This document shows positions 36,548-50,885 of a stretch of 64,000 nt of DNA, one piece after another. Under the pieces are notes generated by a model. The model ran no database searches. It saw only the letters and a program-made list of their open reading frames with translations, and was not told the DNA's origin. The first letter of the stretch is position 1. Every line of letters starts with the position of its first letter. The position numbers were made by a program, and so were the translations under genes. This stretch comes from Candidatus Onthoplasma sp. (GTDB lineage Bacteria > Bacillota > Clostridia > Christensenellales > UBA1242), in NCBI GenBank assembly GCA_045578345.1, contig JAZNKB010000003.1, forward strand, positions 82,604 to 146,603, written 5' to 3'.

Positions 36548-37315
36548 TTATTTTTTTATTTTACTATATTTTCTCAAACCGTTAATTCCATTAAAGAAAG
36601 TGTAGAACAATCTTTTGAAGAACCCAACACCATGTTTTTTGTATGTGTTATATGACATTTTAATTGCCTTTAATTTATTTCGTGATTTTGAACCAACAGT
36701 AAGTCTATAAACAACTGTTGGTGTTTTAATGCCATATGCAATGTTAATTTCTTTCATTATGTTTAACCAACATAAGAAATCTTCATGGACTTCGTCTGCA
36801 TAGAAAGGATATTTTGTTAACAACTCTTTCTTAAACATTGATGCTGATGGCAGGATTTTGTTCTGATAGAAAAGTTTTTTGTATGTAATTGAATCATCAA
36901 CAATAAACTCAGATTTAAGAGGTTCCCCTTCATTAGTCATGAAAGAATATGAAGAGTGAATAATTTGACCACCTGTTTCTTTCTGTCTTGCAATCAATAA
37001 TTCCAAATGATTTTTTTTCCATATATCATCCGAATCAAGAAAAGCCACCCATTCGCTTTTTGCGTTTTTAACACCGTAATTTCTTGTTGCCGAAACTTTT
37101 GAGTTAACTTCGTTTTTCAGTAGAACAATACGAGCATCCTCTTTTTGGAGAGTTTCAACAATTTGACGTGTGTTATCAGTTGAACAGTCATCCACACAAA
37201 TGATTTCAATATTCTTCACTGTTTGATTCATTACAGATCTAATTGTGTTCTCTATATACTTTTCTGCATTATACATTGGTATTACAACTGAACAGTCCAA
37301 ACTTTGATTCTCCAT
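36548..37315 (-). CDS. glycosyltransferase family 2
   Basis: CSVVIPMYNAEKYI..NQTVKNIEIICVDDCSTD, DSDD. Confidence 0.85.
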   Translation of the reverse strand: MENQSLDCSVVIPMYNAEKYIENTIRSVMNQTVKNIEIICVDDCSTDNTRQIVETLQKEDARIVLLKNEVNSKVSATRNYGVKNAKSEWVAFLDSDDIWKKNHLELLIARQKETGGQIIHSSYSFMTNEGEPLKSEFIVDDSITYKKLFYQNKILPSASMFKKELLTKYPFYADEVHEDFLCWLNIMKEINIAYGIKTPTVVYRLTVGSKSRNKLKAIKMSYNTYKKHGVGFFKRLFYTFFNGINGLRKYSKIKK

Positions 37316-37430: not shown

Positions 37431-37817
37431 ATGACGAAAAATAAAATAAAATTGACACTGATTGACGATTATATCAAAATTTGTCTAATCAAAAATTTCC
37501 TAAACAACGACTTTAATCAAGCAAAATTAACACCTTTTTATTTAAATCTAATTTCCAAACTAAAACATTTAAATTCTACACTTGAACAAATATACTGCAA
37601 AATTTTTGAAAAACTTAAACTTAATAACACTTCATTAGATGTTTTAAAACGAGATTTGTTGAACAATAACATCCAGTTTGAAAAAGAGCATCTCAACAAC
37701 TATCTTAATTGCGCCAAAACAATTGACAAATCCAACCTCCTGCTCAATTCAATTTTAAACAACTTAAAACAAAAATTAAAAGTTTTAAAGTTGGATGTCT
37801 CGTGTTTAACAATGTAA
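37431..37817 (+). CDS. hypothetical Asn/Leu/Lys-rich helical protein
   Basis: 128 aa, weak SD GGTGA. Its stop codon abuts the left direct repeat. Confidence 0.45.
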   Translation: MTKNKIKLTLIDDYIKICLIKNFLNNDFNQAKLTPFYLNLISKLKHLNSTLEQIYCKIFEKLKLNNTSLDVLKRDLLNNNIQFEKEHLNNYLNCAKTIDKSNLLLNSILNNLKQKLKVLKLDVSCLTM

Positions 37818-37833
37818 ATATTTGGAATATCAT
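37817..37833 (+). repeat. left copy of 17-bp direct repeat AATATTTGGAATATCAT
   Basis: Exact match to 48958-48974. Confidence 0.7.
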
Positions 37834-38019
37834 GTGAATGTCAAATGAAAATGCGAAAAAATTAAAAAAATATTAAAAAATTATATAATCTACTTACTAA
37901 CAGCATTAAATTTAATGCTGTTAGGCCATTTTCGGTTAGTTTCAGTGGAGATTTTTAAAATTTAGATATGAAAAGAAACAAGCGAGTTTTACAGCTTGTT
38001 TTTTTTAGATAGTCAATTG

Positions 38020-39054
38020 TTAAGCAATTAGTTTCGAATAATGATATTCAAACAAAGTTCGTGAATTATTAAAACCTAATACTTGTCGTGGATAATCATT
38101 AACCCAATCTTCAACTTGTTGCACTTGTTCACGTGTATATTTTGACAAGTCTGTTCCCTTTGGAACAAGTCGTCTGATCTCTCGATTTATTCGTTCGTTA
38201 GTTCCACGTTCACATGAACAGTAAGGATGACAATAATACAATTTTGTTCGTTGACTGTTTCTTCCATAGATACTACGTTCCAATGCAACACTATCAGAAA
38301 ACTCGCTACCGTTATCAACTGTTATTGTCTTAAATAGTTTTTTGAAGTTCTTGCCATATTTTCGTTCAATCTTATTTAAGCAATCAACAACACTTCTTGA
38401 TTTCTGATTTTGCATAGGCATAATAATTTCTTTACGTGTTAATCTTTCAGTTAATACCAGGAATGTACTATTTGAAGAACCACAAACACAATCCATTTCC
38501 CAATGACCGAATGTTTTTCGTTCCAGAATTTCAATCGGTCTTTTTTCAATGCTAGTTCCTTTCGGCGCACGTTTAATAACCATTTTGCGTTTCCCAAGTT
38601 TTCTTTTTTCTTTCATCGGAAGATGTTTGATTTCAAGACGTGAAAAAACACCTTTCTCAATATACTTATACAAAGTGTTTACGCAGATAGTGGTATTGAA
38701 TTGCAAACCTTTATGTTTGATTTCACCCAAAACTGCGAGTGGAGAAAGTTTATCATCTACAATACGTTTTTCAATATACTCAGCATAATCATAATCTTTT
38801 CCGAGTTTAATATCTGCACCTTTATTCTTTAAGTGATTACGATATTTTTCATGTGCAAGGTCACAACTATAACGTGTTTCTTCTTCCCAAGTTACACCTA
38901 TGAGATGTTTATAAGCACCACGTTTCATTTCTCGATAAATTGTACTGATATGTACGTCTAATAATTTTGCAATTTCTTTAATACTGATTTTTGCCAATAA
39001 GTAAGATTCCAATTGCACGCGTTTAGTTCTTGTCAAGTGTTTGAATGTTCGCAT
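38020..39054 (-). CDS. IS30-family DDE transposase
   Basis: 344 aa. N-terminal HTH (ISIKEIAKLLDVHISTIYRE). Catalytic region HWEMDCV ... TVDNGSEF ... ERGTNERINREIRR. Confidence 0.88.
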   Translation of the reverse strand: MRTFKHLTRTKRVQLESYLLAKISIKEIAKLLDVHISTIYREMKRGAYKHLIGVTWEEETRYSCDLAHEKYRNHLKNKGADIKLGKDYDYAEYIEKRIVDDKLSPLAVLGEIKHKGLQFNTTICVNTLYKYIEKGVFSRLEIKHLPMKEKRKLGKRKMVIKRAPKGTSIEKRPIEILERKTFGHWEMDCVCGSSNSTFLVLTERLTRKEIIMPMQNQKSRSVVDCLNKIERKYGKNFKKLFKTITVDNGSEFSDSVALERSIYGRNSQRTKLYYCHPYCSCERGTNERINREIRRLVPKGTDLSKYTREQVQQVEDWVNDYPRQVLGFNNSRTLFEYHYSKLIA

Positions 39055-39080
39055 TTTTCAAATTCCTTTTTGTTTATTGT

Positions 39081-39187
39081 CAATACCAACACCTTGCAAA
39101 AGCAGATCGTGGGCAACTGCGCTAGACCGCTTGCAGATGGCCCACTGTACCTTGCTTTTGTGTTCAAGGTTTTGATATCTGGTATTG
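39081..39187. other. GC-rich ~107-nt nested hairpin (candidate structured RNA or IS end structure)
   Basis: Pairings CAATACCA/TGGTATTG, ACCTTG/CAAGGT, CAAAAGCA/TGCTTTTG, GTGGGC/GCCCAC, CTGC/GCAG. It is locally much more GC-rich than the flanks. Confidence 0.45.
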
Positions 39188-39319
39188 ATTAGATATTTCA
39201 TTTGAGTATGCAAATTATATTTCAACGATCAAGGTTTGTCAAGATGTAAAATTTAAGCCCCTACTTCTTGACTTCATCTTCGAAAGCGTGCTTTATGTTA
39301 AAGAAAAAAGGAGGTAATC

Positions 39320-39400
39320 ATGATTATATTACAACTCGTACTTGTAATACTTCAGATTGTTGCAGCAATCTTAGATATTATTAATATCAATCACGACTAA
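39320..39400 (+). CDS. 26-aa hydrophobic peptide, type I toxin-like
   Basis: MIILQLVLVILQIVAAILDIININHD. Strong SD AAGGAGG lies 6 nt upstream. A downstream ACTTCCTTT can pair with the SD. Confidence 0.5.
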   Translation: MIILQLVLVILQIVAAILDIININHD

Positions 39401-39685
39401 CTTCCTTTTCGCAAGAAGTTTAGCACACTTCCAAATATTTGTCAAGAGCCACACGATGCCACCCCTAGCCAATATGGACTTATTTAATAACACATCCGAT
39501 TTTGAAGTAAAGTGTCGTAAAAAATTTTTGTTCCTTAATGCAGTTGCTTACCACAAAATTTTTTTACTAAAACTTACGTTTTCCACTTGACTTAAAAATC
39601 TATGGATGTGAATTTTTGTTGATAAGAAGTTGTAAGGCGAAGGCTTACAACTTTCAATTATTATTTATTTAGGAGGAATTTATTT

Positions 39686-40096
39686 ATGTCAAACACATTT
39701 AACAGCGACACGAAGGATTTTAATTTTGTGGTTAACAAAGCATTACTAGAAGTGACACCAATCAGATTAAGAGGCAAAATTGCAGAAAACTTATTAGGAT
39801 ATTACAACGAACTGAGGCAGGAAATTAATAAACTTAAAAGAGACTTGGACATGTTTGAATCCGTCAACAAGTATATTAACGAACATAGTTATGAAGAATT
39901 AGAAAAATTTATTCTAACAAGTAAAAGAAAATCAAATCAAGAAAAAGTTGATTTGTTGGAAAAACTTAGAGAACGATTGTCTATTCATACAGAATCAATC
40001 CTAATTAATAATTATTACTTGGAGAGTGTTATAACTACATATGATGTTTGTGAAACAATCAATGAAATGATATTAGAAATTTTAAGGGAGAATTAA
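39686..40096 (+). CDS. hypothetical coiled-coil protein
   Basis: SD TAGGAGG; 136 aa. Confidence 0.6.
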   Translation: MSNTFNSDTKDFNFVVNKALLEVTPIRLRGKIAENLLGYYNELRQEINKLKRDLDMFESVNKYINEHSYEELEKFILTSKRKSNQEKVDLLEKLRERLSIHTESILINNYYLESVITTYDVCETINEMILEILREN

Positions 40097-40098
40097 TT

Positions 40099-40257
40099 AT
40101 GAAAATTAAATATATGGTTTATTATAAAAATAAATTAAATGAAGATTGGAGACTTCATGGATTATATACAAAAACTGACGCATTAGGAACTGCGAATTTA
40201 TTATTAAAAAATGATAGAATTATCAAAATTGTACCTGTAGAAATAATCAAGTCGTGA
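40099..40257 (+). CDS. hypothetical 52-aa protein
   Basis: SD AAGGGAG, ATG 2 nt after the upstream stop, followed by hairpin CGTGA-gttta-TCACG and a T-run. Not in the ORF track because it is shorter than 60 aa. Confidence 0.5.
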   Translation: MKIKYMVYYKNKLNEDWRLHGLYTKTDALGTANLLLKNDRIIKIVPVEIIKS

Positions 40258-40337
40258 GTTTATCACGGCTTTTTTCTTCAAATATTTGCATTTTTCTTAA
40301 AGTTGTATTATAATGTTACAGTTTTAAGGAGTGGTAA

Positions 40338-40940
40338 ATGAACTTATTACATATGTTATCACAGCAACCCGCAAATCAGACAAAGACATCAATTTCAATA
40401 AATCCCGCGATTGCTTTAACAATAGGATTTGTAGTGCTGTTCATAATAATTTTTGTTATTGCGTTTAAATTTTTAGGTAAAAATGAAGAAAATAAAAAAC
40501 CAGAGAAAGAAGAAAACGAAAACAAAGATGAAGATAAAAGTGAAAAATCTTTCCCTGTTGGAATATTGTTATTAATAGTTGTAGTTATAATCTTGATTAT
40601 AATTCCGTTTATAACTGTAAAATGTAGTTCTGACACATCATCAGATACACCAACTTTAATCACGAGAAACATTACAAAAAGAGACTATTCATATACCACT
40701 TCACAAGATTTAACTTCATATAGCATAACAATTGTTCCAGAACTAGACTTTAAAACGTGCACCATTGAGCTGACTTTATATAATTCAAAAGATAAGGAAA
40801 TATTTTCAGATACATTAACTAAATCTAATTTAAGAAAAAACTCATCATATACATATACATTTGAATTTGGTTTTATTAACTCACTTTCCGGCAGTAGTGT
40901 TTCATTCAATGTTACGGGCAAGTGTTCAACGTTTCAATAA
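40338..40940 (+). CDS. two-TM membrane protein with acidic Lys/Glu linker
   Basis: SD AAGGAG; 200 aa. Confidence 0.6.
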   Translation: MNLLHMLSQQPANQTKTSISINPAIALTIGFVVLFIIIFVIAFKFLGKNEENKKPEKEENENKDEDKSEKSFPVGILLLIVVVIILIIIPFITVKCSSDTSSDTPTLITRNITKRDYSYTTSQDLTSYSITIVPELDFKTCTIELTLYNSKDKEIFSDTLTKSNLRKNSSYTYTFEFGFINSLSGSSVSFNVTGKCSTFQ

Positions 40941-40971
40941 AAAAATCTGACTAAAATAAGTCAGATTTTTT
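40939..40971. terminator. bidirectional terminator
   Basis: A-run, ATCTGAC-taaaataa-GTCAGAT, T-run, between convergent modules. Confidence 0.7.
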
Positions 40972-40981
40972 AATCCAATAA

Positions 40982-41215
40982 TTATTTTCGTTTTGCTTTA
41001 TAACAATTAGCAGAATCTTTACGAGAATCTAAATAACCAGCACGATAAGATAACTGAGTATTTGTAAGTTTAATACCTTTGCCGTTTTCAGTTCTTTTTG
41101 TTTTTCCAGTATTAGTTTTTGCATAACCATATTTTAATTCATTTGCAAATTTTTTTCCTTTTTCTGCTGGATTTAATAAGGTAATCGTTTTACCTTTTCT
41201 AGTAATAGTTTTCAT
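40982..41215 (-). CDS. 77-aa highly basic protein
   Basis: Last gene of the minus-strand block; Lys/Arg/Thr/Gly rich. Confidence 0.55.
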   Translation of the reverse strand: MKTITRKGKTITLLNPAEKGKKFANELKYGYAKTNTGKTKRTENGKGIKLTNTQLSYRAGYLDSRKDSANCYKAKRK

Positions 41216-41221
41216 AAATTT

Positions 41222-43402
41222 TTATTCTCCTTTATCAATTAAATTTTTATTTTCATCAATTTGATGTTTATTCATTAAGTCATTAATAAAATAACTGTTT
41301 TGTTGTTGTAGTTCTGCAAACGTTGCTTTTTCAGTTGCATATTCTTCAAGGTCATTAATTCCTATTGGCGAACGTAATGCTTTTTCAGTGAAGAAATCGC
41401 TGAAACAGTCAGTTGAGAATCTACGTGAATAAATTTTTTTAGACATTATATAATATTTGCGTTCCAATATCTTGCCATCCATTGTGCCATTTTCGACTTG
41501 TGTTCCAGCACACTTATAACCGAAAGTGTTATAAATTCTTTCATGGAAATGGTGAAACCAAGCCACAAACTTTTTGACAAAATACATAAACAGTGTGTTA
41601 TCTGATCTTGTAAATCTATATCTGTAATACAAATCAATGAATTTATTAAACACCCAATCATGTATTAAGTCAGTTAATGCAAAGAATGGCATAGCTAGTT
41701 TTTTATCACTAACTTCATCAATTGTCACAACTTCCAATAAATCACGCGCGTCAGCACCCCAAGATTCAGGACGCTGTTCGTCAGTGATAATTTTAACAAA
41801 AGGAAAATTATCAATAGTAGCCCTATGTCTAATCATTTTTAATGCATCGTTAAAACCATCATTTTTTTGATTGGCAAGCAATTCTTTAATTTTTACTTCT
41901 TGCAAAGTTAAATTATTCTTACGTTCCTTTCCAACTTCAGTTATGTTAACAACACCAATTTCTAAAACATCGCTTTTAATATTGTTTTCAATCATTTTCT
42001 TTCCAAGACGCAAACTATCAAAATCCAAGATATGAGCATGACGACTCTGAACTTCCATAAGTTCAGGATTGCGTCTGAAGAAATTGGTATCCCACATTGG
42101 AAAGTTTCCAATATCGTTTAATATGTTATCAGTTCTTATTGAATAATTAGAAACGATAAGTGAACATTGTAAAATATAAACAAAATATAGTTGAGCATAA
42201 TTTTCAATAACTTTCCAAATATTTGTAATCGTGAGACTGTCATTATAAGTCAATCCATAACGCATATAATCATAGTCATAAATATTTGCTTTTGAATTAT
42301 CAAATTCCCAGTTCTTACGTTTGTTATAAACATAAGTTTTTATTGTTGCAAGATTATATATTTCATGCCTTCGCATTGCGCATTTCAAATCGTTTTCTAA
42401 GTTCACCCAGGGGAAATAAGGAAACTTCATATCATTTTTCAAAATCAATTCAAATGCTTTATCTCTCAACATTACTTCTTGCGAAAGTGCCATATCTGTA
42501 ATAATTGTAGTTTTATGTTTACCCATAGTTCCACACAACATTAACAAAATAGGTCGTTCATTGATCATTCCACAATTCTTGTTTTCAAAATGTTGCAATC
42601 TACTATAACCGATTTTCTTACGCAACCAACATATAAATAGATATGTAAGTATAACCCAAGCAAAAGGTGGAATAAAAGCAAGTGATACACTTATATCTAT
42701 AAACAACTTATAGAATTGAGAATATAAAGTCCCAATATCAAAAGCAACGACAAAGAACAAATAGTAAGCAATAAATTCAATAATGATTGTGACCAAGTTG
42801 AAATTAAATGCCCATATAAACAACCATATTTTGATATATCTATTGTTTTCTTTTAGAAAATCAACAAAACTTTTAAGCCAATTTTTTACTGGAATATAAG
42901 TTTTTGTTGCTAACAATTTAACAAATCTCAAAGGTTTACTATCTATGTTATAATCATTATTTTCAGAACGTAAATATCTTTGAAACAATAGATATAAAAT
43001 CAAGAACATTGGAAGAATAATCAACAGCAAAATTCTGCTGAAATTAAACAATAATGTTCCAAGATAAGAAATATACGCTTGAAAATTATCAGCAGTAGTC
43101 CAAACATCCCAATATTCGTTCCACTTTACAACAAATTCTTCCCAAGTTGCAGGAAGATTAAAGAATGGAGTGAATGGAACGTTGGAAGTGGATGTGACTG
43201 TTGGATTGACATCCCAATCAAAATAGAATATCTCTTGTATATAATAGCGGATTGAATTCCATAAATCCCTAAAAGCTTCGCCAATTCTGACAAAAGCATT
43301 AGGAAAAACAAATATTGTAAAACATAAGAAGATAATTGTGATTCCAAACGCTATATAATGTCTATAATTCAAATTTTTAAGTTTTTCTTTTAATTTATTC
43401 AT
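41222..43402 (-). CDS. polytopic membrane P-loop ATPase (candidate pI/Zot-like morphogenesis ATPase)
   Basis: 726 aa. About 270-aa N-terminal multi-TM region, Walker A LCGTMGKHKTT, Walker-B-like VKIITDEQ. Confidence 0.7.
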   Translation of the reverse strand: MNKLKEKLKNLNYRHYIAFGITIIFLCFTIFVFPNAFVRIGEAFRDLWNSIRYYIQEIFYFDWDVNPTVTSTSNVPFTPFFNLPATWEEFVVKWNEYWDVWTTADNFQAYISYLGTLLFNFSRILLLIILPMFLILYLLFQRYLRSENNDYNIDSKPLRFVKLLATKTYIPVKNWLKSFVDFLKENNRYIKIWLFIWAFNFNLVTIIIEFIAYYLFFVVAFDIGTLYSQFYKLFIDISVSLAFIPPFAWVILTYLFICWLRKKIGYSRLQHFENKNCGMINERPILLMLCGTMGKHKTTIITDMALSQEVMLRDKAFELILKNDMKFPYFPWVNLENDLKCAMRRHEIYNLATIKTYVYNKRKNWEFDNSKANIYDYDYMRYGLTYNDSLTITNIWKVIENYAQLYFVYILQCSLIVSNYSIRTDNILNDIGNFPMWDTNFFRRNPELMEVQSRHAHILDFDSLRLGKKMIENNIKSDVLEIGVVNITEVGKERKNNLTLQEVKIKELLANQKNDGFNDALKMIRHRATIDNFPFVKIITDEQRPESWGADARDLLEVVTIDEVSDKKLAMPFFALTDLIHDWVFNKFIDLYYRYRFTRSDNTLFMYFVKKFVAWFHHFHERIYNTFGYKCAGTQVENGTMDGKILERKYYIMSKKIYSRRFSTDCFSDFFTEKALRSPIGINDLEEYATEKATFAELQQQNSYFINDLMNKHQIDENKNLIDKGE

Positions 43403-43404
43403 AA

Positions 43405-43500
43405 CTAAATCCTAGTTGCTGTAAAAATAAAATAACCAAATACAACTAAAAGCAACGCACCTACAACAACTTTCAAAATATTTATTAATGTCTTTTTCAT
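43405..43500 (-). CDS. 31-aa single-TM peptide (candidate coat-like protein)
   Basis: MKKTLINILKVVVGALLLVVFGYFIFTATRI. It sits 2 nt from both neighbouring genes. Below the ORF-track length cutoff. Confidence 0.5.
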   Translation of the reverse strand: MKKTLINILKVVVGALLLVVFGYFIFTATRI

Positions 43501-43502
43501 AT

Positions 43503-44921
43503 TTAATACCTTGTTTTTTTCTTGTTTTTACTAAACAATTTAAATGGAAGTGAAATAACCCACCATACAATCTTGAAGACAATTTTTATAATCCAAATTA
43601 TTGCTGATATTATAGTTGGCAATATTGGAGCGAAAATAACAATCAAAATAATAATAAGCAATAGCATTAAGATAATCTTAAACATATCATTAAGTTTAAA
43701 TTCATAATTATGTTCAGTAGCAGAATTTTCACTACCAGTTTGCTTGTTATCAATTACAGGCAAATCATATACATTTCCATTTGTTTCAAATTTAAGACGT
43801 AAGACTGTTACATCACCAACGGATGTTTTAGAAATATCACGCATTGCAGATGTATAAACATCAGTATAATCAGTTTCAGTAAATCTCAACACCCATTGTT
43901 TAGATTTTAAATTTGCTTCAGCAACATCAGTTAATGTTTCTTCATCAAACACATCAAACATTGCAACACTAAAAATGTTAGTTCCTTCGGCGTCTTTTAG
44001 AAAATCATCAACACTATTAATTCTTTTCCAAGAGTATTTACGTCCACCGAAGCCATCAGTTTCATAACTTGCGTTTTGCTCATAATTCAAATATTCATAA
44101 TCAGGTTCTACTGAACCATAAGAATATTCGGAACCACCGCCGACAGTGTATACAGCTGTAAATCTTTTTTCTTGTGTTGTAAAGTAGACATCTGCTTCAT
44201 ATAATTTATCAATTGGTTTATCAGTTGAAAATGCAACAAAATGAGAATCACAACCACCATCATAAGCATTTAAATCAAAACCATCTTTATAACGTATAAA
44301 GCCAACAAACTTATCAGTTATTTCAATTGTTTCCAATTCAGAAACAGATGTAATGACACCATCATCAGAATTAATGAATGTGTATTGTTTCGCAACCTTA
44401 AAAACAACTTCATCAATTGTATTGTCGTTTATAGGGTCCAAACCTTTATCTATGTTTTCATCCCATGGTCGATATATTGATATAACTTCGTAATATCTTG
44501 TTGTCTCATCAGAAACAGACAATCCATCAACAACATACTTATAGAAAACACCTTGTTTATTTAAGAAATTGAGCTCATAGTTTTTAATATTTTCCTTAAT
44601 ATGTAATGAACAAGATATATTAATACTGCTTGCACGTAGATTCATATGATCAGCACTAGGTTGATAAACATACACAAACAATTCCTTATCTGAACTTTCT
44701 GCAATTTGCATAACTTGCAAAGAATAATCATCTTCAATCATTGGGTAATCTTCTACATTAAAATTCTCGTCAGTAGATAAATCTTCCAATGCGGTTGTAT
44801 AACCACCTTCAACTGAAATGTTTAACGCGCTGACTGTCATTGAATTTGTTGGAATAAAACATATCAAAATATACAAAACAACAAATATAATCGAGAGTGA
44901 AATTCTTAATGCTTTATTCAT
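43503..44921 (-). CDS. secreted protein with C-terminal TM anchor (candidate adsorption/minor coat protein)
   Basis: 472 aa. N-terminal signal-like ISLSIIFVVLYILICFIPTNSMTVSA, C-terminal hydrophobic anchor, then a KNKKKTRY tail. Confidence 0.7.
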   Translation of the reverse strand: MNKALRISLSIIFVVLYILICFIPTNSMTVSALNISVEGGYTTALEDLSTDENFNVEDYPMIEDDYSLQVMQIAESSDKELFVYVYQPSADHMNLRASSINISCSLHIKENIKNYELNFLNKQGVFYKYVVDGLSVSDETTRYYEVISIYRPWDENIDKGLDPINDNTIDEVVFKVAKQYTFINSDDGVITSVSELETIEITDKFVGFIRYKDGFDLNAYDGGCDSHFVAFSTDKPIDKLYEADVYFTTQEKRFTAVYTVGGGSEYSYGSVEPDYEYLNYEQNASYETDGFGGRKYSWKRINSVDDFLKDAEGTNIFSVAMFDVFDEETLTDVAEANLKSKQWVLRFTETDYTDVYTSAMRDISKTSVGDVTVLRLKFETNGNVYDLPVIDNKQTGSENSATEHNYEFKLNDMFKIILMLLLIIILIVIFAPILPTIISAIIWIIKIVFKIVWWVISLPFKLFSKNKKKTRY

Positions 44922-45502
44922 AATTTACCCCCGCTTATTAAATTGAAATGTATATTAATTGTTTCAGACATATCACTTGAAGATATAGATAAAGTAAATG
45001 CTGGAAGTTTAGTATCAACAACTGTTGGAATATCTGAAAGTGTTGAATCAGGGTAATACAATTGCAATATTTCCGGTAAATCCATATTTGCAGTTAATGT
45101 AAAATAATCTTCATAAGAAACAATAGAAAAACCTTTAGCTAAACTTTGAACATCTGAAAAGTTTGTTTCAGTTCCATCAACTTTAAACGTAAAAGTAGTT
45201 GCAGAAGTAATATTTGGTTTTATTAATATCAAATAACCCGAATCTTCACCTTCAAGAGTGTTATGTATTTCAAACTTATATTCTTTACCTAACGTTAAAT
45301 TGTAGTTTTCAAACTCATGAGTGAAAACAACTTTTCCACACGTTACATAAAAATTCTTCAATGGTGTTGTGAAGTTATTAGTAAAAACAAAAAGAAAACC
45401 AAGTGATAACATCACAACTAACATTATCATGAAATTAGATATTGCTTTTGATGTCTTTTCGTTTGATTTTCTTTTCATAATTTTTATCCTTTTATTCAGC
45501 AA
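44918..45502 (-). CDS. N-terminally anchored membrane protein
   Basis: 194 aa. TM FMIMLVVMLSLGFLFVF. Overlaps both neighbours. Alternative start at 45478. Confidence 0.6.
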   Translation of the reverse strand: MLNKRIKIMKRKSNEKTSKAISNFMIMLVVMLSLGFLFVFTNNFTTPLKNFYVTCGKVVFTHEFENYNLTLGKEYKFEIHNTLEGEDSGYLILIKPNITSATTFTFKVDGTETNFSDVQSLAKGFSIVSYEDYFTLTANMDLPEILQLYYPDSTLSDIPTVVDTKLPAFTLSISSSDMSETINIHFNLISGGKL

Positions 45503-46154
45503 TTATTGGTTCAACATAACCAGTAAATACTGCACCTTCTTCAAATTGAACCCAATTTATAACACCTTCAAATCCAGCATTAAAGTACATACTAACACTA
45601 CATTTTCCTTTTTCAACTATAATTTTAACAGTTGATCCAAAGTTAGAAGTAACGCCCAATGTAACTGATGAAGATTCAGTAAAGTATTTTGAAACAGAAT
45701 ATACTACACCATTAAGAGATAAAGACAAAGTTACATCTCTATCTATATACATCTCTTTATCTTCATTTAAAATTTGTGACAAATGGAAAGTTGTATTTCC
45801 AGAGTTTTTCACATAAAGACCTTCCTCAACTTGATAAGCAGTAAAAGATACAGTTGATGTATCATTTGTAAAGTAATTCCAATTATCAACCAATGGATTA
45901 TTCAAAGTTACATTAGTTTCATCAAATACAGCAACTTCACTTGAATTAATTGCAAAATTGGAATTTTTAAGTAAATTATTACTTTCTTTGGTAACATCTT
46001 GAACAAAAGCGTTTTCTACTTTATTTTTGACCCAATTAAAGTCATCTCTACCGAAGAAAGCAAGTGAAACACCGAGTGTTCCGATTGCAAGCAAAGTGAC
46101 CAGAGATATTGTTAAAATTTTCTTAAATTTATTAGATTTAAATAATTTTCTCAT
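45492..46154 (-). CDS. N-terminally anchored membrane/secreted protein
   Basis: 220 aa. TM ILTISLVTLLAIGTLGVSLAFF. Confidence 0.65.
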   Translation of the reverse strand: MRKLFKSNKFKKILTISLVTLLAIGTLGVSLAFFGRDDFNWVKNKVENAFVQDVTKESNNLLKNSNFAINSSEVAVFDETNVTLNNPLVDNWNYFTNDTSTVSFTAYQVEEGLYVKNSGNTTFHLSQILNEDKEMYIDRDVTLSLSLNGVVYSVSKYFTESSSVTLGVTSNFGSTVKIIVEKGKCSVSMYFNAGFEGVINWVQFEEGAVFTGYVEPIIAE

Positions 46155-46165
46155 ATGTCACCACC

Positions 46166-46609
46166 TTATTTGTAGAATCTAACTTCAACGTCAGATTCAT
46201 ATTTGATAATATCAAATGTTGAGATATCATCATCATTTGTTGGAGTGATTACAATTTTAAACAATTCAGCATCTTCAGGAATAACTCCGTTATATGTAAC
46301 ACCAAAATTGTTTGTTGCAGAAATAAAGTTTTCTTCTGCGTCATAGAAATATAATTGATAAGACAAATCTGCGTCTTCATCAACTTTTACACTTAAACCA
46401 TCAACATCATAGAATCCAGTTGATACAAAACTACCAGCATTTTTTGTAAATTTGCCAGCTTCATCCAATGCGCCAACTTCATAATTTGTAGCGCTGAGTG
46501 TTGTGTATGTTTGACTTGAACCCATACGCACGCATAGACCAATTGCAGCTACTAATACTAAAATACCTACAACCGCAATTAACCAATTTTTCTTAAAAAA
46601 TTTCTTCAT
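46166..46609 (-). CDS. N-terminally anchored membrane/secreted protein
   Basis: 147 aa. TM WLIAVVGILVLVAAIGLCV. Confidence 0.65.
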   Translation of the reverse strand: MKKFFKKNWLIAVVGILVLVAAIGLCVRMGSSQTYTTLSATNYEVGALDEAGKFTKNAGSFVSTGFYDVDGLSVKVDEDADLSYQLYFYDAEENFISATNNFGVTYNGVIPEDAELFKIVITPTNDDDISTFDIIKYESDVEVRFYK

Positions 46610-46618
46610 AAATTCTCC

Positions 46619-46876
46619 TTAATTATCTTCTTCGTCTTCAGAACAAAGACAATCCATAATTTTAATAAAATCTTTTACGAAAGTTTCAAAGGATTTAGTA
46701 GACGCAGACTTTGCATATTTTCTTGACATATCAAGGATGAAGTTATCATAATCTTCAAGATTGCAATCTTTACCTACGTAATAACCGATACATTCATCTC
46801 TTAATGGTAAATCATCAACGTCGATTATATTTACGGACCTTTGAAATTCTCGATAAATTTTCCAAAATCTAAACAT
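46619..46876 (-). CDS. hypothetical 85-aa acidic-tailed protein
   Basis: Tightly packed after rep; no motif recognised. Confidence 0.55.
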   Translation of the reverse strand: MFRFWKIYREFQRSVNIIDVDDLPLRDECIGYYVGKDCNLEDYDNFILDMSRKYAKSASTKSFETFVKDFIKIMDCLCSEDEEDN

Positions 46877-46893
46877 TTTAATACCTCTTAAAT

Positions 46894-47979
46894 TTATAAT
46901 GTTATTTGTTCGTCGCCGAAGTTATCAAAGGGCAAATCAGCATTAGAACAAATTTTGTCAAAAGCAGATTGAAAATCAAATTTCTTTTTGTTTGCTTTTT
47001 TCAAATCTATTAGTTCATTTTTGAACATTCGACCAACTCCGGAAGGTTGTCCGGTAGAGTCAAGACCTGAATCATATACAATAACTTCTTTTTCTGTCAC
47101 AACAACATAACAAGAAATACGTCTATAAAGTTGTTGCAGAGATTCCAGATTGCTTGTCCTCAAATGCTTATACCAATATCGAATTGGAATGGATGAGGTA
47201 ATAACAATCATTTCACCAAGAAAGATTTTATTATGAAAACGACTACTAATCGAAGATTGAGTATTGTTGTCAGTAATCTTCAAAAAATCTTCAAACTTAA
47301 AAGTTTCGTCTCTTAAGTCGTCCAGAATTATTGCTTTTTGACCTAAATAGTCTTGCAAAGGGTCATTGCTTGATGAACTAATACAATAATCATATTCTAA
47401 ACTTTTAAGCAATTTCTTGGCATAATACGTTTTGCCAGTTCCTGCTTTTCCAGTTATGAACATAACTTGTAAGTCCCTATCCGTATTCATACTTGAACAT
47501 AAGCATTCCAACTCCCATAATTTTTTAAGCTGATTTAGCGCCTTTGTCTTTTCAACTATCGGTAATGTGTTTGCATATTGGAGCATTTGAGCATAAGTAA
47601 AGTTCTTAAAATCACCGATTATTTTTGCTTCAGCAACTTCAGTTTGCCAATCAAAATTCGCCACGACTTCACTTGGGTCATATTGATGTTTGTTTTTTTG
47701 ACTATCATTGCCATGAATTAAATACAAGAGTGCGTCAGTTCCACGACCTTTAACTTTTTCAATAAAGTTTTCAGGAACACCAAACCAACTTGCAACGAGT
47801 TTAGAATCACAAGAAGACTTACCAAAATTCAAATATATATGATAATGATTTCTTGTTTCATCTTTGTCGTGCAATATGTAAGCCCATTTTTTAATGGTGG
47901 AATACTTCATACACGTTTCTTGTATATCCACTTGCAACTTGTCTTGGTCAGTTACGATTTCCATATGTCTTAATTGCAT
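46894..47979 (-). CDS. rep: rolling-circle replication initiator: HUH endonuclease fused to P-loop (SF3-helicase-like) domain
   Basis: HUH context WAYILHDKDETRNHYHIYLNF, Walker A ITGKAGTGKTY, Walker B AIILDDL, motif-C-like MIVITSS. Confidence 0.75.
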   Translation of the reverse strand: MQLRHMEIVTDQDKLQVDIQETCMKYSTIKKWAYILHDKDETRNHYHIYLNFGKSSCDSKLVASWFGVPENFIEKVKGRGTDALLYLIHGNDSQKNKHQYDPSEVVANFDWQTEVAEAKIIGDFKNFTYAQMLQYANTLPIVEKTKALNQLKKLWELECLCSSMNTDRDLQVMFITGKAGTGKTYYAKKLLKSLEYDYCISSSSNDPLQDYLGQKAIILDDLRDETFKFEDFLKITDNNTQSSISSRFHNKIFLGEMIVITSSIPIRYWYKHLRTSNLESLQQLYRRISCYVVVTEKEVIVYDSGLDSTGQPSGVGRMFKNELIDLKKANKKKFDFQSAFDKICSNADLPFDNFGDEQITL

Positions 47980-48033
47980 AACTCACCAACTTTTAATATC
48001 AGAAAATAATTCATATTCTTTAACCACCCACGA

Positions 48034-48162
48034 ATTATACTTTTTATACATTTTATACGTTTGTCAACACCGGCTGGACAAGCCCCAGCCGATGTGTTAT
48101 TTTTAACTATATTTAAGTTAAAGACAAACATAATGAATTTTATTGTTTTATACGTTTTATAC
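48034..48162 (-). promoter_or_regulatory. origin-like region: two pairs of TTTTATAC iterons flanking a GC-rich hairpin
   Basis: Iterons at 48042, 48051, 48146 and 48155 (period 9). Hairpin CGGCTGG-acaagcc-CCAGCCG at 48071-48091. Lies immediately upstream of rep. Confidence 0.5.
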
Positions 48163-48177
48163 AATTTATCAAAATTT

Positions 48178-48357
48178 TTAATTCTTAGAGAAAAATGCTA
48201 AACGTCCAGATATGCTATCTAAACTTTCATGTGTAAGATAATCACAACCATTGATATCGACAACTATTGTGTACTTTTTATCTTCAGTAACATAAAGAAT
48301 ATGATTTACATTCAATAAAACTCTTTCATTTCTAGTTGTTTTTATTTCGAAAAACAT
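48178..48357 (-). CDS. hypothetical 59-aa protein (LytTR-like pattern, weak)
   Basis: SD AAGGTGG. MFFEIKTTRNERVLLNVNHILYVTEDKKYTIVVDINGCDYL... Below the ORF-track cutoff. Confidence 0.45.
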   Translation of the reverse strand: MFFEIKTTRNERVLLNVNHILYVTEDKKYTIVVDINGCDYLTHESLDSISGRLAFFSKN

Positions 48358-48368
48358 ACGACACCACC

Positions 48369-48692
48369 TTATTGATACAAAGTATCTGCATTAAAAACGT
48401 TAGTGTCTTTTACGATGTCGAGATTAGCAACAAATGTTTTGTTGTTAAAATCGTTGATTCCGAAAGTGACATCAATCAAAGTTCCAGGTAAAATTTGTGA
48501 AAACTTCACGTAATCTTCTGGTTTCTTTGTTTTGTTGATACAAGCATTAACAACAGCTTCATTTGCTTTTGGGTGCCAAAGACCGCCATTGCTCATCTTG
48601 TTTGGTAAACGATATAATGTTAAAAACATCAATTCCTCTCCTGTTTGTTGATCCTTATTTGTTCTTGAACCTACTAAAATACATCTTTTCAT
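48369..48692 (-). CDS. 107-aa protein, first gene of the block (candidate ssDNA-binding protein by size and position only)
   Basis: SD AAAGGAGG; no recognisable motif. Confidence 0.6.
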   Translation of the reverse strand: MKRCILVGSRTNKDQQTGEELMFLTLYRLPNKMSNGGLWHPKANEAVVNACINKTKKPEDYVKFSQILPGTLIDVTFGINDFNNKTFVANLDIVKDTNVFNADTLYQ

Positions 48693-48743
48693 TTTTAAAA
48701 ATCCTCCTTTTGCGGATGAACAACCGCAACACTAAATTAAATT

Positions 48744-48844
48744 TGCCGAGGAAGGGATTCGAACCCAGCGTCGTCAACTCATTCATTCTTGAACTCCTAA
48801 ATTTCACGATCATGACGAGTTGACTGTTCCATACTTAACTCGGC
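48744..48844 (-). other. tRNA-like element (degenerate tRNA-Leu(UAG)-like)
   Basis: Read on the minus strand: acceptor GCCGAG../..CTCGGC-A, canonical T loop GGG-TTCGAAT-CCC, anticodon-like arm TGAA-ATTTAGGAG-TTCA. However, it is 101 nt long, has mismatches in the T and acceptor stems, and an 8-bp extra helix GTCAACTC/GAGTTGAC replaces a normal D/anticodon junction. Confidence 0.4.
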
Positions 48845-48957
48845 AGGTGGTGTTAGGTATTATGTCAGCGCCCAACAACCGCCCAGAAGAAGAAAAAAAC
48901 TGCGAATTCAAGAAAATGGAAGTTATTTTCCTATTCGCAATTAATTATAAAATAAAC

Positions 48958-48974
48958 AATATTTGGAATATCAT
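48958..48974 (+). repeat. right copy of 17-bp direct repeat AATATTTGGAATATCAT
   Basis: Exact match to 37817-37833. Confidence 0.7.
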
Positions 48975-49034: not shown

Positions 49035-49808
49035 ATGAAAGAAAACTCAACAGAAACAAAACGTGGCCCTTATGCAAAATTTTTTAAAAGATTTATTGAC
49101 TTCTTGGTTTCTCTAATTGTACTAATAATTTTATCACCAATAATGCTTATAATTACAATCATTTCTCTTATTTCAATTGGTCGCCCATTAATTTTTGCTC
49201 AATATCGTCCTGGAAAAGATGGTAAAGTTTTCAAACTTTATAAATTTAGAAGCATGTCAAATAAAAAAGATAAAAATGGTAATCTTCTTCCAGATTCAGA
49301 CCGAATCACAAAGTTCGGCAAATTCTTGAGAAAAACTGGTCTTGATGAACTTCCTCAACTTTTTAACATTTTAAAAGGTGACATGAGTTTAATCGGTCCA
49401 AGACCAAGACTTGTAAAAGATATGGTTTTCTATGAAGAATCTGTGTTTCCAGCATACACCGTTCGTCCAGGAATAACTTGCTTGTCTCAAATCAGCGGTG
49501 GAAGAAGTGAATCTTCATGGGAAGACATTTTTGAAAAAGATTTGGAATATTCGAAAAAAATAACTTTCATTGGTGATGTCAAAATATTATTTAAAACTGT
49601 TTTTGCAATTTTCAAAAAGGAAGGAAAAGGCGCAAGTGCTGGAGAAAGCAAACGTGAATATTACTATCCTGACTATTTATTAAAAAGTGGAAAAATTACA
49701 AAAGATCAATATAACAAAGGAATTGAATCGGCAAATAAAATTATTGACAGCAAAGGACAAGTTGTCTATTCTGAAAAATTACATAAAAAACCTAAACAAG
49801 ATAAATAA
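49035..49808 (+). CDS. undecaprenyl-phosphate sugar phosphotransferase (bacterial sugar transferase family)
   Basis: TM near the N-terminus, motif LDELPQLFNILKGDMSLIGPRP. Confidence 0.88.
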   Translation: MKENSTETKRGPYAKFFKRFIDFLVSLIVLIILSPIMLIITIISLISIGRPLIFAQYRPGKDGKVFKLYKFRSMSNKKDKNGNLLPDSDRITKFGKFLRKTGLDELPQLFNILKGDMSLIGPRPRLVKDMVFYEESVFPAYTVRPGITCLSQISGGRSESSWEDIFEKDLEYSKKITFIGDVKILFKTVFAIFKKEGKGASAGESKREYYYPDYLLKSGKITKDQYNKGIESANKIIDSKGQVVYSEKLHKKPKQDK

Positions 49809-49849
49809 AACAATTTTCTAGCGAAAATGTGTTTTGTTGTTAACACAAT

Positions 49850-49878
49850 AAAAAAGCACCGATTGGTGCTTTTTTTTA
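49850..49878. terminator. bidirectional terminator
   Basis: A-run, AGCACC-gatt-GGTGCT, T-run. Confidence 0.7.
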
Positions 49879-49887
49879 CAAATCAAT

Positions 49888-50688
49888 TTATTCTTCATCA
49901 ATTTCAATCTTGTCGTTTTCTTTTATGTTTGGCTTTGTTATCTCACGATACAATTCACTAACATTAACGGTATCTAAATATTTTGTTTTCATTTTCTTAA
50001 TTAAATCATGTTTTCCAAATGAATAATGTTCACTTTCATTTAAAATGATGTGGTCTTCAAAATCAATTCCATGAGATAATACCATATTAATGATTTTTTG
50101 AGTTGTTTGCACATCCGCAAAACTTGGTTCAACGTCTCCACATGGATGAGTGTGAAATAAAACAATGCTGTGAACTCCTTGATTGTTGATATCATTCATG
50201 ATTTGTCTTAAATCAAAACTAATTTCTGTGTCATCTCTTCCTTTATATCTATAAGTCTTTAAAACTTTTTTGTTCTTTGTTAGACATGCCATAATCATAA
50301 ATTCAGTATCTTTAATACTATAAAAATTTCTAAAAAATTCAATACATTTGGTTGTGTTGTTTAAAATGTATGTTTTCTTTTCGAGCTTGCTTTTATTATA
50401 GATTTCAATGAGTTCAGAAAGCGAACGAATAAAAAGTGCACTTTCAGGTCCAATTCCTTCAACTTTTAATAAATCATGATAATCAGCATCAAAAACATTC
50501 GAAAAACCGCCAAAATATTCAATTAAATTATGCCCGATTGGATTTGTGTCCTTCCTTGGAATTGAATAAGTTAACAGCAATTCTAAAATTTCATGATATT
50601 CAAGACAATCTAAACCATTCTTTCTAACTTTTGTCTTTAGTCTTTTTCTATGATCCTTATGCGTGTTTACGCTTTCTTTCTTGTTCAT
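49888..50688 (-). CDS. radC: RadC-family JAB-domain protein
   Basis: SD GAGGAA precedes ATG 50688. HhH GIGPESA, JAMM-like HTHPCGDVEPSFAD. Confidence 0.85.
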   Translation of the reverse strand: MNKKESVNTHKDHRKRLKTKVRKNGLDCLEYHEILELLLTYSIPRKDTNPIGHNLIEYFGGFSNVFDADYHDLLKVEGIGPESALFIRSLSELIEIYNKSKLEKKTYILNNTTKCIEFFRNFYSIKDTEFMIMACLTKNKKVLKTYRYKGRDDTEISFDLRQIMNDINNQGVHSIVLFHTHPCGDVEPSFADVQTTQKIINMVLSHGIDFEDHIILNESEHYSFGKHDLIKKMKTKYLDTVNVSELYREITKPNIKENDKIEIDEE

Positions 50689-50885
50689 AATTTCCTCATT
50701 TGTTTGTTTTAGTTTATCACAATGTTGAAATTTTTTCAATAGTATATCTTAAATTTTTATTTTTACATTAACAAAATATTTTTTCAAAAGAAAAATTTAT
50801 TTTATTTTACTTGTAAATGTTTATGAAAAAATATATAATAATATTTATAAAAGACATAATAAAGAATAAAAAAACAAGGAGATAT

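Follow-up and report, generated by a model that had tools for sequence, protein, structure and literature searches.

A rolling-circle element of gut Clostridia with IS30-type ends and a membrane ATPase module, probably from a new lineage of virus-like elements that live like plectroviruses

Insertion sequences (IS) of the IS30 family form intermediates in which the two ends are joined by a short spacer, with a promoter at the junction, and the same is true of other copy-out/paste-in elements; IS1630 of Mycoplasma fermentans uses long, variable inverted repeats as targets and duplicates them. Filamentous phages are now defined by an FtsK-like ATPase of the pI/Zot family and a hydrophobic helical coat protein, while their replication module is exchangeable and can be an HUH Rep, a Rep_trans, a RepL or an IS3/IS30 transposase (PMC13595969); PMC6668415 also reports exchange of replication modules, including IS30 transposases. 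Here, we analyse a stretch of 64,000 nucleotides (nt) of Candidatus Onthoplasma sp. (Christensenellales; contig JAZNKB010000003.1, 82,604 to 146,603), hereafter the window, whose numbering is used throughout. A preliminary description of the window had likened a block of minus-strand genes at 40982-48692 to filamentous phages. Our results indicate that this block is part of an intact element, at 37834-48957, mobilised by an IS30-type transposase and belonging to a large and essentially undescribed family, a conclusion that is well supported, mainly through the relatives of the element. The element looks active and probably stands for a new virus-like lineage whose lifestyle resembles that of plectroviruses. 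We give about even odds (roughly 0.5) to its being a temperate, capsid-less, non-lytic virus-like element that replicates by rolling circle and exports its DNA through a module centred on a membrane ATPase.

Several described systems share part of these traits. The plectrovirus SpV1-R8A2B (NC_001365, Plectroviridae) has a small circular genome that is also found integrated, a low-GC host of the Bacillota lineage, and an IS30-family transposase (ORF3) that is encoded downstream of the structural genes, on the same strand, and resembles that of the window (29% identity, hmmsearch E = 9e-30). Its ORF1 protein (715 aa) combines a signal peptide with a C-terminal anchor, like the 472-aa protein of the element, it encodes several small transmembrane (TM) proteins, and its ORF2 ATPase has a P-loop after N-terminal TM helices, like the ATPase of the element. 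SpV1 differs in that it has no Rep and that ORF2 has only 337 aa, whereas the ATPase of the element has 726 aa and includes a polytopic domain. The likeness between these ATPases is confined to the last TM helix and the P-loop with its Walker A motif (hhalign probability of 24%), and no other proteins are detectably related. ORF1, similar in length to the ATPase, was considered as its homologue and rejected, because it has the signal-plus-anchor architecture and no P-loop; the P-loop protein of SpV1 is ORF2. Bajarodino virus 74 (PQ006121), one of the Inoviridae of the gut, shares with the element a circular genome (~10 kb) with unidirectional genes, an IS30-like transposase (42% identity, hmmsearch E = 7e-104), and a Rep with HUH and superfamily 3 (SF3) helicase domains (hmmsearch E = 1e-15 between the two Reps). 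Its ATPase is instead a Zot protein of 245 aa (PF05707), unrelated at the profile level, and it lacks the families of the 472-, 194-, 147- and 31-aa proteins. Finally, Acholeplasma phage L2 (Plasmaviridae) and the pleolipoviruses resemble the element in having a temperate genome (12 kb), release without lysis, and envelope proteins that carry a signal peptide and are anchored at the C-terminus, and L2 ORF3 also has TM helices followed by a P-loop. Yet the integrase of L2 is a tyrosine integrase and an HUH Rep is missing from it, and we rejected a kinship with it because no protein is detectably related.

The ends of the element (Table 1) are exactly the two positions, 48957 and 37834, that the preliminary description had proposed as the sides of a circular junction. 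The block itself had been drawn too narrowly, since the transposase gene, a set of antisense genes and the terminal repeats also belong to the element. We estimate from base composition that the chance expectation of a 17-bp repeat in the flanks is ~2e-4. The two ends are found abutted in a close relative (locus L086) and are kept across 28 elements; their terminal inverted repeats are imperfect, with a subterminal (A)TGCGAA motif at both ends of the window element. The insertion lies just past the stop codon of a host open reading frame (ORF) of 128 aa (37431-37817), within a locus of exopolysaccharide or polysaccharide biosynthesis (36548-37315, 49035-50739), with a family 2 glycosyltransferase on one side and a polyprenyl glycosylphosphotransferase (sugar phosphotransferase) together with RadC on the other; no record was found when the proteins of the two flanking genes were looked up by exact match. 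The palindrome past the transposase gene probably acts as a terminator and so insulates the 3' terminal repeat. We also considered a tRNA or tmRNA attachment site and rejected it: the T-arm-like motif lies inside the element rather than being a gene fragment at its border, and ARAGORN and Rfam were negative.

The relatives show the same organisation. In 27 of them, which together with the window element make 28 delimited elements, direct repeats of 15-28 bp bound elements of 10-18.5 kb, with one copy 40-270 bp beyond the stop codon of the transposase gene and its partner 10-18.5 kb upstream. The repeat sequences vary from element to element; several are palindromic, hairpin- or terminator-like, and located just 3' of genes, and the insertion sites differ between genomes. 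What is conserved lies just inside the repeats (5' TGTAAAGTTTTAC/TA... and ...CTTGACTTTTCA 3'), and these subterminal motifs co-vary between the two ends of each element (e.g., AAATGCAGAA at both, or AATTACACA at both), a pattern expected of ends that are bound by a single transposase. Joined ends were observed in four relatives and none in the window copy itself. Two are circular contigs, L070 with a terminal overlap of 141 bp, and L100 (14,521 bp, overlap of 55 bp), where the transposase gene is directly followed by Rep. In L086, whose ATPase is 84% identical to that of the window, the contig is permuted, with both contig ends inside the transposase gene, and its junction, ...GACATTCAC-AGAT-GTTTATTTTATAATT..., which reads GTTTATTTT after AGAT, corresponds exactly to the two ends of the window element. 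The fourth case (L014:1625-13828) consists of two tandem copies of the element in a chromosomal contig of 449 kb, which may be an intermediate like the IS30 dimer or may have arisen when circular and integrated forms were merged in the assembly. The spacer at the junction of circles and tandem is ~2-4 nt.

These junctions create a promoter-like arrangement from two halves that are kept apart in the integrated form. In all four, the hexamers are exactly 17 nt apart: TTGACA-17-TATAAT in L086, TTGACA-17-TAAAAT in L070, TTGACA-17-TACACT in L100 and TTGACT-17-TATACT in L014. Moreover, the 28 delimited elements all have TTGAC(A/T) and TAnnnT placed such that a spacer of 1-4 nt yields the 17 nt. Both the circular or joined-end forms of the relatives and the promoter geometry that circularisation would assemble are thus well supported. 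Since the junction joins a -35 box to a -10 box facing the long operon that spans the genes from g107 via Rep to the ATPase, circularisation should switch this operon on, although promoter activity is here predicted from hexamers and spacing. This suggests a simple and testable switch, in which excision itself turns on replication and export.

The element thus has the transposase, the imperfect terminal repeats, the variable target duplications, the joined ends (in relatives) and the split -35/-10 of IS30-family insertion sequences. It differs from them in being 10-18.5 kb long across the family rather than a simple IS of 1-1.7 kb, in having its own rolling-circle replicon and a membrane module of 7 kb, and in having a junction promoter that faces a long operon, with the transposase at the far end under its own promoter. 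Judged from its sequence and from these ends, the transposase is the integrase of the element. This would provide a second and much larger example, besides the plectroviruses, of a virus-like replicon using an IS30-type transposase as integrase.

Table 1. Features of the element and of its insertion site in the window (strand as in the window; dot, no strand).
Feature	Position	Strand	Remarks
Whole mobile element	37834..48957	-	11,124 bp, 15 or more genes; bounded by a perfect 17-bp direct repeat
Target-site duplication, 5' end of element	48958..48974	.	AATATTTGGAATATCAT on the + strand; 17/17 match to 37817-37833
Target-site duplication, 3' end of element	37817..37833	.	starts with the final stop-codon base of the host ORF
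Site expected without the element			CGTGTTTAACAATGTA-AATATTTGGAATATCAT-TGATTTATGTTGAAAA
5' terminal inverted repeat	48930..48957	-	GTTTATTTTATAATTAATTGCGAATAGG; holds the -10 box TATAAT at 48944-48949
3' terminal inverted repeat	37834..37861	-	reverse complement GTGAATGTCAAATGAAAATGCGAAAAAA; outward-facing -35 box TTGACA at 37839-37844
Perfect palindrome of 28 bp	37897..37924	.	CTAACAGCATTAAATTTAATGCTGTTAG; directly past the transposase stop; kept in L086
IS30-family DDE transposase	38020..39054	-	equivalog match to NF033563 (225 bits, cut-off 80)
Sigma-70-type promoter upstream of the transposase gene	39214..39242	-	12/12 consensus; consensus match only
Antisense accessory genes (three)	39686..40940	+	136, 52 and 200 aa; 200-aa protein with 2 TM segments
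77-aa very basic protein	40982..41215	-	net charge +16
726-aa membrane ATPase	41222..43402	-	polytopic helical N-domain (1-281) and divergent P-loop domain
31-aa single-TM peptide (g31)	43405..43500	-	motif K.ILKV..G....GYFIFT
472-aa acidic protein (g472)	43503..44921	-	signal peptide and C-terminal membrane anchor; core family
194-aa N-terminally anchored protein (g194)	44918..45502	-	core family, 38 loci
220-aa N-terminally anchored protein	45492..46154	-	variable slot
147-aa N-terminally anchored protein (g147)	46166..46609	-	family often with 2-4 tandem paralogues
85-aa acidic protein	46619..46876	-	unique to the window element among mapped loci
Rolling-circle Rep, 361 aa	46894..47979	-	HUH origin-binding domain and SF3 helicase; motifs HYH, YLIH, GKAGTGKT
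Putative double-strand origin	47980..48177	-	GC-rich hairpin CGGCTGGGGCTTGTCCAGCCG flanked by 4 GTATAAAA iterons
59-aa small protein	48178..48357	-	weak LytTR/FlbD-like Pfam match, E = 0.002, below cut-off
107-aa protein (g107)	48369..48692	-	encoded upstream of Rep in type-A relatives; family of 7 loci
Structured non-coding leader	48693..48929	-	tRNA-like T-arm GGGTTCGAATCCC at ~48735-48770, then acceptor-like strand

Within these borders, the block consists of eleven co-directional ORFs on the minus strand, encoding from upstream to downstream 107, 59, 361, 85, 147, 220, 194, 472, 31, 726 and 77 aa, with the coordinates and sizes of the preliminary description. Its picture of tight packing largely stands: consecutive ORFs are 2-17 nt apart or overlap by 4 and 11 nt, except at the iteron region, which was put at ~200 bp and is a non-coding stretch of 198 nt with a hairpin and four repeats, but the gap between Rep and the 85-aa gene is 17 nt, above the 12 nt claimed. 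A Kyte-Doolittle scan agrees with the membrane topologies it had proposed, finding a single N-terminal hydrophobic segment in each of the 147-, 220- and 194-aa proteins, an N-terminal and a long C-terminal segment in the 472-aa protein, one TM segment in the 31-aa peptide, and ~5-6 N-terminal TM segments ahead of the P-loop GTMGKHKT in the ATPase. The strong basicity of the 77-aa protein was likewise confirmed. The label of single-stranded DNA-binding protein (SSB) for the 107-aa protein was not: profile searches of Pfam and of PDB sequences gave no match. The genes of the block are not chance ORFs, because the ATPase has 2,879 homologue clusters and g472 has 2,392, and because their order recurs in ~160 independent loci.

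Apart from Rep, the block proteins gave nothing above noise in Pfam, PHROGs, NCBIfam and PADLOC. As had been anticipated, no capsid, terminase, relaxase or type IV secretion system (T4SS) signature emerged from these scans, nor any defence signature, and no tail or lysin gene is recognisable in the block. A defence system was considered and rejected, the only PADLOC match being at noise level and on the P-loop of Rep. The homologues of the 472-aa protein are all unannotated, the family has no match in profile searches of Pfam and PDB, and its architecture makes it a candidate adsorption or spike protein. In relatives, the slot of the 220-aa protein is occupied by proteins with Ig-like or Listeria-Bacteroides repeats, the 59-aa protein has a counterpart in the elements with the second type of Rep described below (family c13), and the position of the 77-aa protein, a candidate DNA-binding or condensing protein, is taken by diverse small basic proteins, of which many kinds are found around the ATPase.

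The Rep matches Rep_OBD (PF01719, 3e-11) and RNA_helicase (PF00910, 8e-7) in Pfam, in agreement with the HUH/P-loop Rep of the preliminary description. The combination of YLxH in HUH motif III with an SF3 helicase is the signature of the pCRESS Reps in PMC6668415, and the window Rep falls within this definition (the YLxH supergroup) by its YLIH motif and its two Pfam domains. Its closest matches are Reps of phytoplasma plasmids (35% identity over 83% of the window Rep). These plasmids and the integrated pCRESS plasmids thus share with the element the type of Rep, the integrated state and the lack of known viral structural genes; they are described as integrated site-specifically and delimited by attachment-site repeats, and neither a membrane ATPase nor IS30-type ends are mentioned in the available part of the source (PMC6668415). 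Folded as single-stranded DNA (ssDNA), the 198-nt region upstream of Rep is more structured than shuffled sequence (z = -4.5), and together with the Rep domains it suggests that the element replicates by rolling circle. As the preliminary description had supposed, the element is a rolling-circle mobile element and not a chromosomal complex. Upstream of the operon, the stretch 48693-48957 is also structured as ssDNA (z = -3.5). The leader is kept in L086, where the T-arm is better formed (GTGGGTTCGAATCCCAC); neither ARAGORN nor Rfam calls a tRNA or tmRNA in it, and it is possibly a single-strand origin, a packaging signal or a small RNA. In three type-A relatives (L058:1372-1674, L062:5918-6217, L073:3752-4003), a protein of 70-100 aa is encoded just upstream of Rep. 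It ends in DDDLPF, DDSGIPF or DNDILF, similar to the C-terminal tip of bacterial SSB, which hints at handling of single-stranded DNA; the window element does not have this gene.

The family is large. A survey of the ATPase at one genome per species gave 359 ATPase-encoding stretches, mostly in metagenome-assembled genomes of Christensenellales and other gut Clostridia, with two copies in some genomes. One carrier, Pumilibacter intestinalis CLA-AA-M10 (L064), has been cultured, which makes the proposals below directly testable. We placed the window proteins and protein clusters built de novo on ~160 loci and obtained a common backbone: (Rep type A) - g147 paralogues - variable anchored protein - g194 - g472 - small basic protein - g31 - ATPase - (Rep type B) - accessory genes - IS30-like transposase. 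The g472 gene is upstream of the ATPase gene in 105 of 116 loci, and the transposase gene is downstream of it, on the same strand, in 50 of 75. The two types of Rep are mutually exclusive: 14 loci have type A, the HUH/SF3 Rep of the window, 26 have type B, and none has both. Type B has ~330 aa, belongs to PF23343 (the ORF2/G2P family of ssDNA phages) and is encoded between the ATPase and the transposase.

The integrases vary as well, being of IS30, serine or tyrosine type. Large serine recombinases (~390-520 aa) are present in L013, L042 and L067, and tyrosine integrases in L001, L042 and L080; L067 and L080 have an IS30-like gene besides the other integrase, and some loci without an IS30-type gene carry a serine or tyrosine one. 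This suggests swapping of integration modules, and since Reps and integrases are both swapped around it, the ATPase/g472 module is the constant core of the family. Type-B elements begin with a gene encoding an SprT-like zinc metalloprotease (PF10263; e.g., L074:891-1511); often a zinc-ribbon protein (cluster c8) is encoded in antisense, and some of these elements have a protein with a DnaJ domain. The contig of L147 (ERZ1643251 NODE-3265, 15,210 bp) has a coverage of 149x, against 19x for L133 in the same assembly, and may reflect an episomal multicopy state. Recurrent contigs of ~6.4 kb were considered as free genomes and rejected, as they are assembly fragments.

At the centre of this core, the ATPase has 2,879 homologues when clustered at 90% identity and 1,220 at 50%, nearly all of ~720 aa and none with a Pfam domain. 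Its Walker A lysine (K297) and Walker B residues (D541/E542) are ~245 residues apart, with large insertions in the P-loop domain, and a motif TE.GKER.N is invariant. An AlphaFold model built from an alignment of 104 sequences has high confidence (pLDDT 94.6); it replaced a first model, from 36 close homologues, that had a pLDDT of 64 and gave meaningless Foldseek matches. The best Foldseek match in PDB is the packaging NTPase B204 of STIV2 (4KFT, E = 0.18, probability 0.72), and HerA is found as well; these matches are weak (E = 0.18-0.29, target-normalised TM-scores of 0.19-0.39). Like the ATPase domain, B204 and HerA are P-loop pumps acting at membranes, but B204 lacks a polytopic membrane domain and no sequence signal links the ATPase to them. 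In BFVD there is one significant match, to an unnamed viral protein of 269 aa (A0A894JLK1, E = 5e-5), for which tables and literature provided no identity, followed by ORF286 of Acidianus two-tailed virus. Profile searches of PDB sequences with the ATPase, g472, g107 and c9 families gave no result. The 31-aa peptide, with its basic N-terminus and its strongly conserved GYFI(F/Y)T, is always encoded directly upstream of the ATPase. The preliminary description had taken it for coat-like by size and topology. It appears too conserved and of the wrong charge polarity for a typical, fast-evolving coat protein, and is likely to belong to the ATPase complex as a small subunit. Both the ATPase and the 472-aa protein represent large orphan families, and together they could define a new machine for DNA export.

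Evidence on particles comes from a preprint of July 2026 (bioRxiv 10.64898/2026.07.08.737213) that describes an 'unknown MGE' (mobile genetic element) of ~15 kb in the mouse-gut Pumilibacteraceae genome MGBC157735 (Christensenellales). An IS30 lies at one of its edges, it is flanked by short direct repeats and carries an 'inovirus gp2' gene, and it is strongly enriched in virus-like particles (VLPs) that were filtered at 0.2 um, treated with DNase and purified on CsCl; the authors assigned neither an element type nor a mobilisation mechanism. Both 19-mers published for it are found exactly in the transposase genes of two type-B members of our family, L074 and L032; their ATPase shares 54% identity with that of the window. 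Judging by these matches, the 'unknown MGE' almost certainly belongs to the same family, type B, and at least one family member would then occur in nuclease-resistant particles. It differs from the window element by its G2P-type rather than HUH/SF3 Rep and by its accessory genes. The work presented here would provide this element with an identity, exact boundaries and a mechanism of mobilisation.

These observations can be assembled into a tentative cycle. Sequence signatures in the window element and in its relatives show the first step, in which the IS30-family transposase produces, by copying or cutting, a circle of the element whose terminal repeats abut, and reinserts it just 3' of genes with duplication of a 15-28-bp target (17 bp here). 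In the circle, and only there, the joined ends would set the -35 exactly 17 nt from the -10 and presumably turn on the operon. Rep would then nick the hairpin-iteron origin and amplify the element by rolling circle, as its domains suggest, yielding single-stranded intermediates. The DNA might next be brought to a membrane complex of the 726-aa ATPase and its 31-aa partner and leave the cell without lysis, condensed by the 77-aa protein, in a particle made of the 147-, 220-, 194- and 472-aa proteins, the last serving as adsorption protein. The proposed export is based on the synteny with the pIII-pVI-pI genes of inoviruses and on the presence of a family member in DNase-resistant, CsCl-purified VLPs. 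By analogy, the element would work like a plectrovirus or an inovirus, whose export modules are not demonstrably homologous to its own.

Several results weigh against this reading. The proteins of the putative virion module have no detectable homology to any virus structural protein in Pfam, PHROGs or PDB profiles, and we identified no small hydrophobic helical major coat protein, the block having no single-TM protein of 30-90 aa other than the 31-aa peptide. The ATPase is found in only 2 of 2.9 million IMG/VR contigs and in 1 of 50,697 GenBank phage records, and its likeness to packaging ATPases of the FtsK-HerA type, drawn from a predicted structure, is weak (E about 0.2). A search of metagenomes for the empty site, as a flank+N17+flank pattern, returned 0 matches. 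The link to the 'unknown MGE' rests on two exact 19-mers and not on a full sequence comparison with its contig k141_31383, and the enrichment in VLPs could result from packaging by a helper phage. Finally, the preliminary description had placed the ATPase in the position of pI/Zot, and this equivalence was not upheld: PF05707 (Zot) is absent from the window ATPase and from 60 of 60 family members in Pfam, the hhalign probability against the gut Zot family is 6.8% and concerns Walker A only, and no named Zot protein is among the 50 best Foldseek matches in PDB or BFVD. These negatives are not strong, because a control comparison between Zot and the plectrovirus SpV1 ORF2 also fails.

The low power of such comparisons is one argument for regarding the element as a highly diverged but true filamentous phage (Tubulavirales), with the ATPase as a derived pI/Zot and one of the small membrane proteins as coat. 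The order of the pIII-like protein, the small TM protein and the ATPase is that of inoviruses, SpV1 ORF2 and L2 ORF3 also have TM segments before the P-loop, and the ATPase aligns with the former as described above. We nevertheless consider this possibility highly improbable in view of the Zot negatives, which include the structural search made with a high-confidence model, of the wide Walker A-B spacing with its large insertions, and because no coat-like protein was found. Among the traits of the group (Tubulavirales, realm Efunaviria), the exchangeable replication module is present in the element but is not group-specific, and the hallmark pI/Zot ATPase was not found. What remains of the filamentous-phage fit proposed earlier is thus the parallel in gene order and the plectrovirus-like lifestyle, and these do not establish membership in the filamentous phages. 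That no coat protein was found also speaks for an integrative plasmid or a minimal conjugative or mobilisable element, whose Rep would double as a relaxase, its ATPase be a divergent translocase like FtsK or a type IV coupling protein (T4CP) that pumps DNA straight into a neighbouring cell, and its surface proteins be adhesins or parts of a channel. With its N-terminal TM segments, C-terminal P-loop and ~720 aa, the ATPase recalls coupling proteins and FtsK-like TraB, and its weak structural matches fall within the FtsK-HerA superfamily; the Rep is of plasmid type, close to those of phytoplasma plasmids and with YLxH, and related pCRESS Reps are described in PMC6668415 from integrated plasmids without viral structural genes. 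The preprint also reports a 'TraG/TraD' annotation in the 'unknown MGE', which a Pfam scan of the corresponding element L074 did not reproduce (no table of genes is given in its supplements), and PF12696 was found neither in the ATPase of 60 family members nor in the 10 L074 proteins scanned. No VirB4-type ATPase, coupling protein, relaxase or T4SS signature was matched by Pfam or NCBIfam in these proteins or in the block, and TrwB, VirB4 and FtsK are not among the 50 best Foldseek matches of the ATPase in PDB. The Rep might conceivably double as a relaxase. Still, enrichment in VLPs after DNase and CsCl is unexpected for contact-dependent transfer, the type-B Rep comes from a family of ssDNA phages, and a conjugative nature seems unlikely to us.

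Another possibility is a phage satellite that excises, replicates and is packaged in the capsids of a helper, its membrane module having another role such as superinfection exclusion or helper manipulation. A size of 10-18.5 kb, an integrase and replication of its own and the lack of capsid genes all suit a satellite, as does enrichment in VLPs by a gradient protocol designed for tailed phages, and the closest IS30-like transposases are integrases of tailed phages, such as Saumur and the Faecalibacterium phage Lagaffe (52% identity to that of the window). Packaging-hijack genes like those of phage-inducible chromosomal islands (small terminase subunit, capsid-size redirection) were not found by Pfam or PHROGs, nor were other capsid-remodelling or helper-interference genes by these libraries and PADLOC, and it is hard to explain why about half of each satellite would be a strictly conserved membrane ATPase module. 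The VLPs of the preprint also contained a Zot-bearing element, which its authors read as a phage satellite; if it forms inovirus-type particles, then the protocol does not exclude such particles. Altogether, a satellite appears quite unlikely. The membrane module could also be mere cargo (a transporter, a surface structure or a toxin exporter) of a giant IS30-type transposon with a plasmid-like phase, which would not export DNA. The transposon features are the best-proven part of the element, its variable surface proteins have Ig-like or Listeria-Bacteroides repeats as adhesins do, and the ATPase has no assigned function. But the ATPase/g472 pair is constant while integrases and Reps are swapped, which indicates that the module defines the element instead of being its passenger. 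The enrichment of a family member in VLPs and the huge, patchy distribution with multiple diverged copies per genome, which fits horizontal spread, also argue against simple cargo, and we regard it as very unlikely.

The virus-like reading can be carried further. The family might be a new realm-level lineage of non-lytic bacterial viruses, built on a module of a ~720-aa polytopic ATPase, a 31-aa partner and anchored structural proteins without known viral homologue, common in mammalian gut Clostridia, unseen by virus-detection pipelines, and with a programme turned on through a promoter found only in the circle that the transposase makes. We advance this proposal tentatively, as a whole that is possible and still somewhat doubtful. 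The virus-like reading itself, if it holds, would imply that mammalian gut Clostridia hold abundant temperate virus-like elements missed by current virus finders.

Two minor features deserve mention. The three antisense genes at 39686-40940, with the ATPase operon on one side and the transposase gene on the other, have counterparts only in L002 and L086, the closest relatives, and may form a module for lysogeny or of cargo; between them and the convergent ATPase operon is a hairpin (40938-40985). In host DNA beside a related element, a T-box leader was matched on the minus strand at L007:1472-1702 (E = 2e-9, below the gathering score), unrelated to the element itself.

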